From contig JAYWFD010000090.1 of NCBI GenBank assembly GCA_043778965.1, forward strand, positions 1-30,019: a stretch of DNA of 30,019 nt, written 5' to 3'. Source of the DNA: Candidatus Altimarinota bacterium (GTDB taxonomy: Bacteria; Patescibacteriota; Gracilibacteria; BD1-5; UBA2023). Within the stretch, counting starts at the first letter, position 1; every line of letters starts with the position of its first letter. The position numbers and the translations under genes were made by a program. The notes beneath the pieces were generated by a model. That model was not told where the DNA came from, did no database searches, and saw only the letters and a list, made by a program, of their open reading frames with translations. Shown piece by piece: positions 26,048 to 29,951 of this stretch.

Positions 26048-26353
26048 ATGGTCAAATCTCCAAGCTGTGCCTGTCCGAATACGACTCATCTTTTTACTCT
26101 CCTCGGGAAAAAATGGAATATTTTTATCATGCATGCGATCGCCTCTGGTCATCATACCTTCACGACTATCAGAGAGCATACAGGTAAGCCCAATACGAAG
26201 ATCCTGACTGATCGACTAGCAGAACTCGTAGAAGCTAGAGTCCTCGAGAAATGTACAAATGAATGAAGTTATGGACTTACTCCCCTCGGAAAAGAACTTA
26301 CAAAAAAAATTATCGGACTTGGTGAATGGTGGGCAAGCACTTCGGAGAAATAA
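26048..26353 (+). CDS. HxlR-family winged-helix transcriptional regulator, 101 aa
   Basis: CACP...LLGKKWNIFIM...KILTDRLAELVEARVL...YGLTPLGKEL...EWW. Divergent from the nitroreductase. Confidence 0.88.
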
Positions 26354-26364
26354 TCTTCAGAAAT

Positions 26365-26850
26365 ATGGATATATACTATCGTATCGTCCGATATTTAAAT
26401 CGATATATCACCTTCACTCCTGAATTTCAGGAGTATGTTTCACGCGCGAATTTTATCGATTCAGCAAAAAAGTATCTCGACTATCCATACATACTCGGTG
26501 GGGATGGGTCAGATAAGACCAACTGAATCGACTGTTCTCATCTTATCTCTCGATCACTCATCGATACATGATGTATGAATCTATATTTTTATCGAACTGC
26601 TCAATATCTTCGGAGTATCACGAAAGAAGTACAATCAGAATCAGAAATCCGACCAGGAGATCTACTCTTTCTCTGGGATGATACCGTTGAGATCGGACAT
26701 GTGGCGATCATACTAGAAGTACTCGGATATGAAAACCTGGAGATTCTCGATGCATCTGGTCCATCTACAGGTATATGGTCGACGAAAATTCGAGGTATTC
26801 AGCTCGGATGAGAGAAGTATCTGATTGGAAGTCTTAATTTTATTAGATAA
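26365..26850 (+). CDS. NlpC/P60-family cysteine peptidase without signal peptide, 161 aa
   Basis: AKKYLDYPYILGG, G(TGA)IDCSHL (catalytic Cys), RTAQYL, IRPGDLLF, GHVAI (catalytic His). Confidence 0.9.
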
Positions 26851-26852
26851 TT

Positions 26853-26880
26853 TTGACATATTTTACTATATTTGTATAGT
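26853..26880 (+). promoter_or_regulatory. sigma70-like promoter for thrC
   Basis: TTGACA 26853-26858, 16-nt spacer, TATAGT 26875-26880. Confidence 0.55.
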
Positions 26881-26901
26881 AATTTTACTTTAAAATAATT
26901 T

Positions 26902-28521
26902 ATGTTCACATCTACAATCTCAAGAAAACTTCACTTCAATACTTTCTACAAACAATTTGTTGACTCTCGTGGATATGTCGATGCCGTGAACCTTCCTGAT
27001 GCCGTACAAAAAAGTCAGCCAGATAAGGGTGGTGGACTCTTTTCCTTAGAAGAGTGAGGTCTCCCTTTTTTCAATACTGACTATTTAAAATGAATGGCTA
27101 ATTTTGATTATAAGAAGCTGGCAATGGTTATACTCTGATCTTTTGAGTGGGGCATATCTCCAGAAGAATTTGAGAAAATTATCGACGAAGCCTATGCTGA
27201 ACAATGGCTCAAACCACACGGAGATAACTGGTATAGTAAGGATGTAACCCCTATAAAACATGTTTGAGAATGACTTTATTCTCTTCATCTTGGGTATGGT
27301 CCGACCATGGCATTTAAGAATGTAGCCCTCGAATTCCTCCCTCGCTTTCTCGATGCTATCATAACCAAGCTATCTCAGCGTGGTACAAAGATCAAAACTC
27401 GACATGTACTCGGAGCCTCAAGTGGTGATACCATCAATGCTGCACATCATGGAGTAAAGTGAACTCAGCATATCAAATCTATATTCATGCTTCCTGAACG
27501 TGATCCAAATACAGGCAAGTGACCATCTCAGGTTCAAGCACTCCAGGCGACACATGGACTGATGAATAATCCAAATGCTCTTACACTTCTTGTAGATGTA
27601 CCTTTTGATCCCGCTCAAGATATTATCAAAGCTCTTAATGGTGATAATTTTAGTTCGTTTAAGGAAGAATATGGCATCACGTCATTTAACTCGATTAATA
27701 TTGCTCGTATCCTTGCCCAGACTGTATACTACTTCCGAGCCTATACTGAGCTCGTAAAACAGTGAGTAATACCAGCAGGACAGGAAGTCGTCTTCTCTGT
27801 TCCTTCAGGAAACTTCTGAGATGCACTTGCTGGTATGTATGCGAAATATATGGGACTCCCCATCAAGATGATCCATATAGCTACCAATGAAAATGATGTC
27901 CTCGACGAATTTTTCCATACTGGTATATACCGTCCTCGCGATGAGAAAAATGTGAGAATCTCAAATGCTCCATCTCAGGATATAGCAAAGTCGAGCAACC
28001 TCGAACGAGCAATATTTCTGGCTTGTGGTGGTGATCAAAAAAAGATGAACCAATGGTATAACATAGATCTCAAGGAAAAAGGATATTTCGAAGTTGACAC
28101 TGAAACATTGAGAAATCTTCAGTCTACATTTAGCTCTTCAAAAAGCACTGATGCTGAACGTCTCTCGACTATACAAGGGATGCTAGATCAATACTGACAC
28201 CCTATCGAGACTCATACTGCTACTGCTGCTACACCGTGGCTTGATGGTACATTCGATGAGTATAAGAAAGCTGGTGTTCCAGTCATCATGCTTGAAACAT
28301 CACATCATGCACAATTTCGAAGTGAACTTACGAAAGAGTGAATTATCCTTCCAGAAGATGGGGAATTTATTGAGACGATAGAAGCGATGAAACAAGCGAA
28401 ACCTGAACAAGGCGTACACTTTTTACGACTAGACTTAAAAGATAGAACTCCAGCTCAAAGAATAGCAATAGTCCAGCAAGCAGTAGAGATGGCTGCTCGA
28501 GATATATTCCCAACCAGATAG
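26902..28521 (+). CDS. thrC: Threonine synthase (long, E. coli/yeast-type subfamily), divergent, 539 aa
   Basis: DKGGGLF, GPTMAFKN (PLP lysine), GASSGDT, NSINIARILAQTVYYF, VPSGNFG(TGA)D, IATNENDVL, DIAKSSNLER. Stop TAG at 28519-28521. Confidence 0.85.
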
Positions 28522-28531
28522 AATAATATTT

Positions 28532-28559
28532 TTGACTCTCATCACTTTCTCTCTATACT
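28532..28559 (+). promoter_or_regulatory. sigma70 promoter for the lysA leader
   Basis: TTGACT 28532-28537, 16-nt spacer, TATACT 28554-28559; leader ATG 7 nt downstream. Confidence 0.65.
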
Positions 28560-28566
28560 TAAATTC

Positions 28567-28617
28567 ATGTTCTCTAAAGTTATCATCATGAAGAAGATTT
28601 TCTCTCCACTCGGATAG
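28567..28617 (+). CDS. Putative leader peptide MFSKVIIMKKIFSPLG (attenuator control ORF for lysA)
   Basis: ATG 28567 to TAG 28615-28617. Three Lys codons including tandem AAG AAG at 28591-28596. Its 3' end is complementary to the 5' arm of the downstream terminator. Confidence 0.6.
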   Translation: MFSKVIIMKKIFSPLG

Positions 28618-28646
28618 GTTCTTTGTCGTGATATCCCAAACACTTC

Positions 28647-28680
28647 AAGCCTCTCCGAGAAATCGGGGAGGTTTTATTTA
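28647..28680 (+). terminator. Intrinsic terminator (attenuator 3:4 helix) 20 nt upstream of the lysA start
   Basis: AAGCCTCTCCGA-GAAA-TCGGGGAGGTTT, a 12-bp stem with two G-U pairs and a GNRA loop, followed by TATTTA. Confidence 0.8.
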
Positions 28681-28694
28681 ACTCTTTTTCTCAT

Positions 28695-29951
28695 ATGAAT
28701 ACTCTTCGATTTCTCACTCCAGATACTATTGCTAAAATTCGTGATAGTTATGCAACTCCCATTTTTGTCTACTCAGAGAGGATTCTCCGGGAACAAGCAC
28801 GGAAGGTTATAAACTTCCCTCACCATTTCTGATTGACTCCACGCTATGCGATGAAGACGAGTTCGAATCGAAGCCTTCTCCAGATTTTTCACTCCGAGGG
28901 ACTCCATATCGATGCCTCGAGTGGATATGAGGTGATGCGTTCCCTGAGTTCTGGGATCCCTGCGAGCCATATCCAGCTCACCGGTCAGGAAATGCCGAGA
29001 AATCTCGAAGAGATCGTGAATCTCGGTGTAGAGTTCAATGCAACGAGCCTCCATCAGCTCGAGACCTATGGGAATCTCTTTCCAAATACAGAAGCCTCGA
29101 TCCGAGTGAATCCTGGCATGGGATCTGGTGGGACCAATCGGACCAATGTCTGAGGACCAGGATCAAGTTTTGGAATTTGGCACGAATATTTAGACGATGC
29201 GAAAAAAATCGCAGAGAAATATCGTCTCACGATCACGAAGCTTCATACGCATATCTGATCAGGATCAGATCCTGAAGTCTGGAAAAAAGTGGCAAGCATG
29301 GTACTGGATATTGTAGAAAAACTCCCTGATGTAGAGACAGTATCACTCGGTGGAGGATTCAAAGTAGCTCGTATGGAGTATGAGAAGACTGCGAATCTCG
29401 AAGAAATCGGGAATCATGTGAAGTGACTCTTTTGGGATTTTTATGAGAAAACATGAAGAAAGCTGCATCTCGAGATCGAACCGGGAACCTTCCTCGTAGC
29501 AAACTCAGCAAGTCTCATAACAGAAATTATCGATATCGTCGATACCTGAGAGGATGGATATAATTTCATCAAGGTAAATGCCGGGATGACAGAAGTGACT
29601 CGCCCATCACTCTACGGTGCACAGCATCCTATTATTGTTATACCAAAAAAGGGAAATCCTTATAAAAAAGAGTATATTGTAGTCGGACATAACTGCGAAA
29701 GTGGAGATATCTTCACTCCCGCACCCTGAGATCCAGAGTGACTCCTTCCTCGAACACTTACAGAAGCATGTATCTGAGATGCTCTCGTGATAGAGTCAGT
29801 CGGATCCTACTGCGCCAGTATGAGTACTCACGGGTACAATAGCTTCCCAGAAGCAGGTGAGCTTCTCCTTCGAGAGGATGATGATATAGTCGAAATAAGA
29901 AAAAGAGCATGAGCCGAAGAATTATGGAGAAATGAGATAATGGTAATATAA
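28695..29951 (+). CDS. lysA: Diaminopimelate decarboxylase, 418 aa
   Basis: TPIFVY, RYAMKT (PLP lysine), DASSGYE, RVNPG.G.G....TNVGGPGSSFGIW, HTHIGSG, LGGGF, EPGTFLV, GHNCESGD, GSYCASMS..YNSFP. Confidence 0.93.

Follow-up and report, generated by a model that had tools for sequence, protein, structure and literature searches.

Organization of the leader region upstream of lysA

The stretch of DNA analysed here (hereafter the window) comprises 30,019 nucleotides of contig JAYWFD010000090.1 (assembly GCA_043778965.1) from Candidatus Altimarinota bacterium, an uncultured member of the Gracilibacteria known from a sediment DNA metagenome. It was read under genetic code 25, in which TGA encodes glycine. 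A thrC-like gene (26902-28521) and a lysA-like gene (28695-29951), which are open frames under this code only, flank a short leader that a preliminary description had proposed to be a lysine-sensing attenuator. Its anatomy and its comparison with related genomes indicate that this leader is very probably a ribosome-mediated (leader-peptide) transcription attenuator. The region is organized as follows:

28532-28559, + strand: sigma-70-type promoter (TTGACT 28532-28537, 16-nt spacer, TATACT 28554-28559; promoter scan score 10/12)
28567-28617, + strand: leader-peptide open reading frame (ORF) of 16 codons, MFSKVIIMKKIFSPLG followed by a stop, putatively leaderless (ATG 28567, 7 nt past the -10 box; TAG 28615-28617)
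28585-28632, + strand: hairpin P1, 18 bp, predicted to sequester segment 2 (-15.5 kcal/mol; in the minimum free energy (MFE) structure)
28591-28596, + strand: tandem Lys codons AAG AAG, the proposed sensing site; the second AAG is the family-wide Lys
28609-28620, + strand: segment 2 (CTCGGATAGGTT), which holds the TAG of the leader ORF and can pair with segment 1 or segment 3; its core CGGATAG is invariant in 27 copies
28647-28679, + strand: intrinsic terminator with a 12-bp stem (28647-28658 with 28663-28674; -19.2 kcal/mol), a GAAA loop and the U-tract TTTTATTT
28648-28659, + strand: segment 3 (AGCCTCTCCGAG), terminator 5' arm and antiterminator 3' arm
28695-29951, + strand: lysA-like gene for a pyridoxal phosphate-dependent decarboxylase of the diaminopimelate (DAP) decarboxylase family (418 aa under code 25), the putative first regulated gene

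The promoter, the mini-ORF with its two Lys codons and the terminator had all been placed at these positions by the preliminary description, and each was recovered there. The terminator hairpin stops 20 nt short of the lysA ATG (28695), and the promoter scan detected no promoter-like site on the + strand at 28600-28695, the gap between terminator and lysA included. This agrees with the earlier argument that lysA needs read-through. The terminator is not listed by a simple terminator scan because an A-U extension of the stem consumes the T-run. An Rfam search of 28300-28900, with permissive filters and up to E = 10, returned chance-level matches only and no lysine riboswitch (L-box, RF00168), T-box (RF00230) or known leader.

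Conservation of the leader and probable translation of the mini-ORF

In a DNA search covering 204 genomes of the order to which the window belongs, a 100-nt core of the leader (28581-28679) was recovered from 27 other species genomes, with 73-87% identity. All of them belong to one family, and several have no lysA. From an alignment of 27 copies (A2) we built a covariance model, R1, which found 28 copies scoring above 75 bits in 27 of the 89 genomes of the family. These copies are spread over four genera, with normally one copy per genome. A second copy in the window's own genome (G000; the other G and L labels used below designate genomes and loci of relatives) was found neither by BLAST nor by the covariance model, in an assembly that is 86% complete. 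R1 matches at 30-45 bits were also considered as leaders and rejected, being mostly plain terminators of the CTCTCC/GGAGAG type. A pattern scan of GTDB species genomes identified only metagenome-assembled genomes (MAGs) of Candidatus Gracilibacteria, Peribacteria or Patescibacteria, plus one other contig. This contig, which carries the leader motif at L110 (JALSKZ010000075.1) and is probably mis-binned, is from a MAG labelled Thermodesulfobacteriales.

The promoter belongs to the conserved unit: across the 27 homologous loci, TTGAC shows at least 90% conservation and TAnnnT does not vary, although the further flanks differ. In an alignment of copies with the promoter included (A1), the -10 TAnnnT and the ATG are both invariant and the first four to five leader codons vary freely, while the ACT ATC ATC ACN AAG AAG ATT block, TCTCCACTCGGATAGG, the P1 3' arm and the terminator arms are near-fixed. 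The resulting leader peptide has the consensus x(4-5)-T-I-I-T-(K/I)-K-I-x-S-P-L-G in the 27 copies.

Four lines of evidence indicate that the mini-ORF is translated. First, all 27 homologues have the ATG 6-7 nt past the -10 box, and the invariant TAG lies in the same frame. Second, its length is 16, 17 or 19 codons, i.e. indels are multiples of three. Third, third positions vary most over the conserved block (codon-position entropy of 0.33/0.53/0.73), with synonymous changes such as ATC/ATT, ACG/ACA/ACC/ACT and AAG/AAA. Fourth, among the 652 long ORFs of G000, a -10-like hexamer lies exactly 6 nt before the ATG in 29 (each other gap length mostly accounting for 4-13 ORFs), and a Shine-Dalgarno (SD)-like motif precedes only 44. 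Leaderless or SD-independent initiation seems to be the rule in this genome, and the earlier suggestion that the leader is probably leaderless fits both this 6-nt spacing peak and the near absence of SD-like motifs.

A Lys codon stands at position -7 from the stop in 26 of the 27 copies and at -8 in the remaining one; the Lys-containing upstream ORF (uORF) that the preliminary description had suggested looking for in relatives is thus conserved. As Lys represents about 6% of the codons in this genome, two Lys codons out of 16 are unremarkable alone, and the argument is carried by conservation and gene context. In the 86%-complete assembly, the only tRNA-Lys found is tRNA-Lys(UUU), though the leader uses mostly AAG.

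Mutually exclusive helices

The leader RNA was folded with RNAfold, and significance was estimated against dinucleotide shuffles. The whole leader has an MFE z-score of -4.1. The 5' arm of P1 corresponds to the codons I-I-M-K-K-I-F-S-P and so includes the Lys codons, while its tip is TCTCTCC/GGATAGG. The helix 1:2 initially noticed (28601-28607 with 28612-28618) is therefore real, and proves to be the tip of the longer 18-bp P1. Helix 2:3 (28609-28620 with 28648-28659) is paired at 11 of 12 positions, one of them G-U, exactly as had been reported, with -13 kcal/mol when isolated and about -17 kcal/mol when extended. The duplex of the terminator 5' arm with the upstream leader reaches -15.8 kcal/mol, against -7.0 +/- 2.1 kcal/mol for shuffled sequences, and only 1 shuffle out of 2000 was as good.

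Helices 2:3 and 3:4 are kept in all 27 copies. Over these sequences, 95% of cells are paired in the terminator and 70-99% in each sub-helix of P1. For the pairing of segments 2 and 3 the value is 81%, compared with 21-47% in slid controls.

We then folded the leaders with a ribosome footprint covering up to 12-15 nt beyond the first base of the P-site codon. For a ribosome at the -7 codon of an RNA that still lacks segment 4, the antiterminator is the predicted MFE structure in all 27 homologues. Once the ribosome is beyond codon 12-14 or on the TAG, segment 2 is covered in this model and the terminator alone forms. The AAG AAG pair would be the last codons at which a stalled ribosome covers the P1 5' arm yet leaves segment 2 wholly free. 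Productive stalling is predicted at codons 5-11, which correspond to the conserved T-I-I-T-K-K-I block (V-I-I-M-K-K-I in the window). Footprint folding across the homologues thus supports the attenuator logic put forward in the preliminary description, namely that a stall at Lys frees the antiterminator and that a ribosome on the TAG masks segment 2.

Genes downstream of the leader

The first recognisable gene after the leader is lysS (11 copies and 1 probable), aspartate kinase (8 copies), lysA (3 copies) or asd (2 copies) in 24 of the 27 cases, or 25 when L029 is counted, where the sequence stops after a small ORF that elsewhere precedes lysS. A GNAT-domain protein comes first in 1 copy, and the contig ends after the leader in another. 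The usual layout is a single leader-headed operon per genome with lysS as its last gene, as in the following examples:

G001: leader-lysA-NlpC/P60-dapF-hom-(137 aa)-lysS
G008: leader-ask-lysA-hom-lysS
G006: leader-ask-lysS
G004: leader-GNAT-...-lysS

With lysS among the targets, tRNA charging is a better fit as the sensed signal than free lysine. The leader variant (KK or IK) is not linked to the first downstream gene in these loci, except that the S-K-K-S-K-K variant presented below precedes lysA.

The orthologues of the window's lysA in G001 and G072 (about 80% identity) are preceded by the same leader, and the encoded protein carries the Pfam domains Orn_Arg_deC_N and Orn_DAP_Arg_deC. Synteny suggests that the regulated unit is probably lysA together with a longer operon ending in lysS. 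No lysS, ask, asd, dapF or hom was found in the window's 86%-complete assembly and the contig ends 68 nt past lysA, so the operon may continue beyond the contig end.

Some neighbouring genes deserve mention. Within 26251-28521 of the window, an interval that also holds thrC, an NlpC/P60 gene stands upstream of thrC, and its homologue in G001 (67% identity) is found between lysA and dapF, inside the leader-headed operon. This placement links peptidoglycan-peptide cleavage to DAP/Lys genes. Conserved small ORFs of 63 aa (L039, L042, L044) and 75 aa (L027, L029, L031, L046) separate the leader from lysS, and a conserved ORF of 166 aa separates it from asd (L035, L038); none of the three has a Pfam or NCBIfam match.

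Leaders of the same design with other codons

Beside the leaders described above (type A), whose uORF lacks TGA codons, the family contains sequence-divergent leaders of the same design. At L037 and L082, both before lysA, S-K-K-S-K-K replaces T-I-I-T-K-K, giving 4 Lys codons. L037 shows matched changes across segments 1 to 4, with G-to-T in segments 2 and 4 and C-to-A in segment 3.

A second leader, type B, occurs in tandem after type A in about ten genomes. It directly follows the type-A terminator at L022, L024, L027-L031 and L033, and was also found at L077 and L089; with R1, type B leaders score 31-51 bits. Their terminator is ATCCGCTC-loop-GAGCGGAT and their segment 2 is GAGCGGAT, so segment 2 tracks the terminator. 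The peptide, M..T-I-I-T-K-K..L-Y-E-R, is encoded by an ORF of 56-63 aa in most copies, which passes two TGA codons in frame, read as Gly, and then its own terminator (ATCCGCTC-loop-GAGCGGATTTTT). After the terminator, it continues into the peptide (K/R)-I-F-G-T-x-(F/Y)-x-(M/L)-I-V-F-E-K, with a codon-position entropy of 0.68/0.43/1.29 and a Gly codon that varies among GGA, GGC, GGG, GGT and TGA. Given this entropy pattern and the synonymous variation of the Gly codon, the post-terminator peptide appears to be translated and under peptide selection.

Other leaders are rich in Ile. In two other genera of the family, three genomes have leaders with 6-7 Ile codons, e.g. MYTKNIIIAIIILSCRRG and a stop, before citramalate-synthase-like genes, and two more Ile-rich copies precede unidentified genes. 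Their segment 2 (AGGAGAGG) matches their CCTCTCC terminators. These five Ile-run leaders, each with a terminator and including MYAKNIIISIIILSTRRGLL and MKKQIIISIIILS, both closed by a stop, are located at L080, L152, L153, L154 and L157 (genera g10 and g30).

In the window's own genome, proS is preceded, at a distance of about 380 nt, by a leaderless ORF, MISKLNFAYLVPPPLSTLGR with its stop, and a terminator (minus strand of contig C24, L100:1300-1860 and L130; see also L122-L132). This leader is present in at least 9 of the 12 genomes of the genus (at least 8 relatives), with the pattern x6-AYL-(V/A/L)-P-(V/P)-P-L-S-T-(L/F)-(G/E)-R-stop. Its antiterminator shows compensatory changes from CTCTCG/CGAGAG to CTTTCG/CGAAAG. 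We regard the proS leader as a candidate Pro-codon attenuator.

Two further mini-ORFs were also noticed. The first, at L079 (G108:C40), is a Thr-run leader, MVAQLDTLTTTTLSPIG and a stop, with a terminator of its own and a segment 2 that matches it. The second, on contig C105 of G000 (144-330, L101), has the promoter / 7 nt / ATG arrangement and reads MKAISSLLVLILLPSQGGVGV to its stop; a terminator follows, then a 94-aa ORF with no family match.

Changes in segment 2 are accompanied by changes in the terminator at L037 and in the type B, Ile, Thr and Pro leaders, and the useful covariation came from L037 and the other sequence-divergent leaders. Codon content thus shifts with the pathway while the architecture stays constant, as predicted for a ribosome-stalling sensor and unlike a ligand-binding RNA.

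Proposed mechanism and sensed amino acid

From this anatomy and comparison, the following mechanism can be proposed. The mRNA would begin at or beside the A of the ATG that opens the uORF, and would thus be leaderless. In the emerging RNA, P1 (28585-28632) would fold and lock segment 2, the terminator (28647-28674 and the U-tract) would then form, and transcription would stop 20 nt before lysA. When charged tRNA-Lys is ample, the ribosome would reach the TAG inside segment 2 and cover this segment, so that the terminator forms and lysA is off. When charged tRNA-Lys is scarce, a ribosome stalled at AAG AAG (28591-28596) would cover the P1 5' arm and leave segment 2 free. Segment 2 could then pair with segment 3 before segment 4 is made, no terminator would form and RNA polymerase would read into lysA.

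Lys is likely to be a sensed amino acid, with somewhat less certainty than the attenuator itself. It is the best-supported signal because no other residue is shared by all type A, S-K-K-S-K-K and type B leaders, because lysS, lysA and dapF are Lys-specific, and because the two Thr positions are occupied by Val and Met in the window. Ile, and Thr in relatives, may be co-sensed with Lys, since the whole block falls within the predicted stalling range and such co-sensing is plausible with ask, asd and hom in the operons. The caveat of the preliminary description that the Ile and Met codons could be sensed stands, and Ile and Thr in the conserved block may be co-sensed in most members.

Several observations weigh against these interpretations. 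As long as segment 4 has not been made, P1 (-15.5 kcal/mol) is not favoured over the antiterminator (about -17 kcal/mol) at equilibrium. At this stage, equilibrium folding with ribosome masks cannot by itself separate the no-ribosome state from the stalled state, so a kinetic argument is needed: for the off state to arise without a ribosome, P1 would have to form first, an assumed kinetic trap. Only 1-2 Lys codons are conserved and a typical leader holds more Ile and Thr codons than Lys codons, which makes the attenuator design more secure than the identity of the sensed amino acid. Because the copies share common descent, counts are not independent, and covariation within the 27 type-A copies is weak, the sequences being too similar. 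As for the covarying 2:3 and 3:4 helices that the preliminary description had hoped to find, the pairings are kept in all copies and covary in divergent leaders, but hardly within type A. Moreover, the lysA genes of two relatives of the same genus, G007 and G009, have no such leader. Lastly, the lysA-like protein of the window scores 251.5 bits with TIGR01048 (lysA), below the NCBIfam cut-off of 297.9.

Alternative explanations

The reading that survives best besides a Lys-directed attenuator uses the same attenuator as a multivalent switch of the aspartate family, in which stalling at Ile and Thr codons counts at least as much as stalling at Lys codons, as in the E. coli thr leader. It refines the best explanation and is not an alternative to it; we treat it as a serious possibility, albeit one that falls short of being favoured. 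A typical leader, MTQRNTIITIKTISPLG, contains 4 Thr, 4 Ile and 1 Lys, and its Thr and Ile codons vary synonymously, so that residue identity is under selection. The entire T-I-I-T-K-K-I block lies in the productive stalling range, and ask, asd and hom serve Thr, Ile and Met besides Lys. Nevertheless, Lys alone is present in every leader, including all type B leaders and the S-K-K-S-K-K leaders that have no Thr/Ile run, and the window has Val and Met at both Thr positions. The Lys-specific genes lysS, lysA and dapF point the same way, lysS being last in every operon examined, and related genera possess dedicated Ile leaders with 6-7 Ile codons.

Lysine or uncharged tRNA-Lys could instead be sensed directly, by a riboswitch or by a leader that binds tRNA or protein, the small ORF being incidental. 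We consider this improbable. The in-frame ATG at the leaderless position in 27 of 27 copies, the whole-codon indels and the third-position variation all argue for a translated ORF, and leaders of the same design exchange their codon content with the pathway (Ile, Pro, Lys only). The RNA, about 110 nt long, consists of a hairpin and a terminator only and is shorter than transcriptional T-boxes; the Rfam lysine riboswitch and T-box models do not match it, even though lysine genes elsewhere are usually under L-box riboswitches or T-boxes. The very high conservation of P1 and terminator nucleotides, which extends to the synonymous sites of S-P-L-G, might suggest a ligand-binding RNA, but the invariance of these codons is explained by each base joining two alternative helices.

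This same conservation, with a nearly invariant S-P-L-G-stop C-terminus and a stop codon inside segment 2, also raises the idea of an arrest peptide (...KKI-x-SPLG-stop) that would act at the stop codon in response to a free small molecule, as TnaC or SpeFL do, rather than read tRNA charging. With the ribosome held at the stop, segment 2 would be covered and termination favoured, so that such a sensor could work only if ligand binding caused repression. In addition, the C-terminal conservation is at the nucleotide level, without synonymous variation, as predicted by RNA pairing and not by selection on the peptide, and the Ile and Pro analogues end in different C-termini. We judge an arrest peptide very unlikely.

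Finally, it is scarcely credible that there is no regulation at all, with the hairpin serving as the thrC terminator or belonging to a separate gene for a small RNA or small peptide, and with the uORF and helix 2:3 arising by chance: the terminator does lie 126 nt after thrC and Lys and Ile codons are common in AT-rich DNA, but the comparative data contradict this view, as the unit occurs with its own promoter in 27 genomes behind varied upstream genes, yet before same-strand lysine-related genes in 25 of 27, a 2:3 pairing this good is as rare in shuffles as given above, and the promoter scan detected no promoter-like site between the terminator and lysA.

Significance for the Gracilibacteria

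Very little is known about gene regulation in the Candidate Phyla Radiation (CPR)/Patescibacteria, and our literature searches found no paper on attenuators, riboswitches or other cis-regulatory RNA in Gracilibacteria or CPR. If the ribosome-mediated attenuator is correct, transcription is coupled to translation in these tiny, recoded (TGA = Gly) and uncultured bacteria, which would monitor tRNA charging via leaderless mini-ORFs. It is conceivable, although we would not yet call it likely, that a lineage-wide system exists in code-25 Gracilibacteria, in which leaderless leader peptides (Lys with Thr/Ile, Pro, Ile) do the job of T-boxes and riboswitches for synthetase and amino-acid genes, type B adding a possible second sensing or coupling layer that arose after TGA reassignment. 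The definition of a lysine operon (ask, asd, lysA, dapF, hom, lysS) helps to decide which amino acids are made or salvaged by these reduced genomes. The leader is an addition, absent from Rfam, to a known type of regulator, and R1 could be added there as a model. The mechanism is a textbook one, and the value of the result is in its distribution and in annotation rather than in a new principle.

Comparison with known systems

The closest known parallels include the E. coli attenuators, i.e. thrL (Rfam Thr_leader) and those of trp, his, leu, ilv and pheA. These share with the lysA leader a promoter, a short ORF with regulatory codons, a 1:2 hairpin, an exclusive choice between a 2:3 antiterminator and a 3:4 terminator, and a stop codon in or near segment 2. 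As proposed for the Gracilibacteria leaders, thrL controls an operon with aspartokinase/homoserine dehydrogenase, and it reads Thr and Ile codons. However, the lysA leader has no sequence or Rfam similarity to this group, is putatively leaderless and has no Shine-Dalgarno sequence. The lysA-type leaders hold 1-2 (up to 4) cognate Lys codons, fewer than classical leaders, their targets include an aminoacyl-tRNA synthetase, and their host is a code-25 CPR bacterium. Type B departs further, as an ORF running through its own terminator into a conserved peptide is not seen in classical attenuators.

The E. coli pheST attenuator, with its pheM leader peptide encoded by an SD-led ORF containing five Phe codons, also regulates the synthetase of the amino acid that it reads, comparable to lysS at the operon ends here. 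The Gracilibacteria operons differ in adding the biosynthetic genes ask, asd, lysA, dapF and hom.

The lysine riboswitch (L-box) and the Lys T-box control the same kinds of genes (lysC, lysA, lysine transport, lysS/lysK). Both are large folded RNAs that detect free lysine or uncharged tRNA without requiring translation; the lysA leader is too short for either.

The preliminary description knew of no earlier account of a leaderless, Lys-codon attenuator in a CPR bacterium, but each half of the design has a precedent. In Thermus thermophilus, the lysine (alpha-aminoadipate) cluster is reportedly under a leader-peptide attenuator with tandem Lys codons, which likewise attenuates lysine biosynthesis genes. 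That system is from another phylum and serves the alpha-aminoadipate pathway rather than a DAP-type lysA, and it is not said to be leaderless or to control lysS. For the leaderless half, the short ORFs of mycobacteria offer a parallel, for which, to our knowledge, no classical intrinsic terminator/antiterminator pair has been described. In these bacteria, leaderless polycysteine short ORFs act as amino-acid-responsive attenuators of the downstream operon (bioRxiv 10.1101/834739). As in the lysA leader, the short ORF is located at the 5' end of a leaderless transcript and attenuates the operon that follows, but the mycobacterial ORFs sense Cys instead of Lys and belong to an unrelated lineage.

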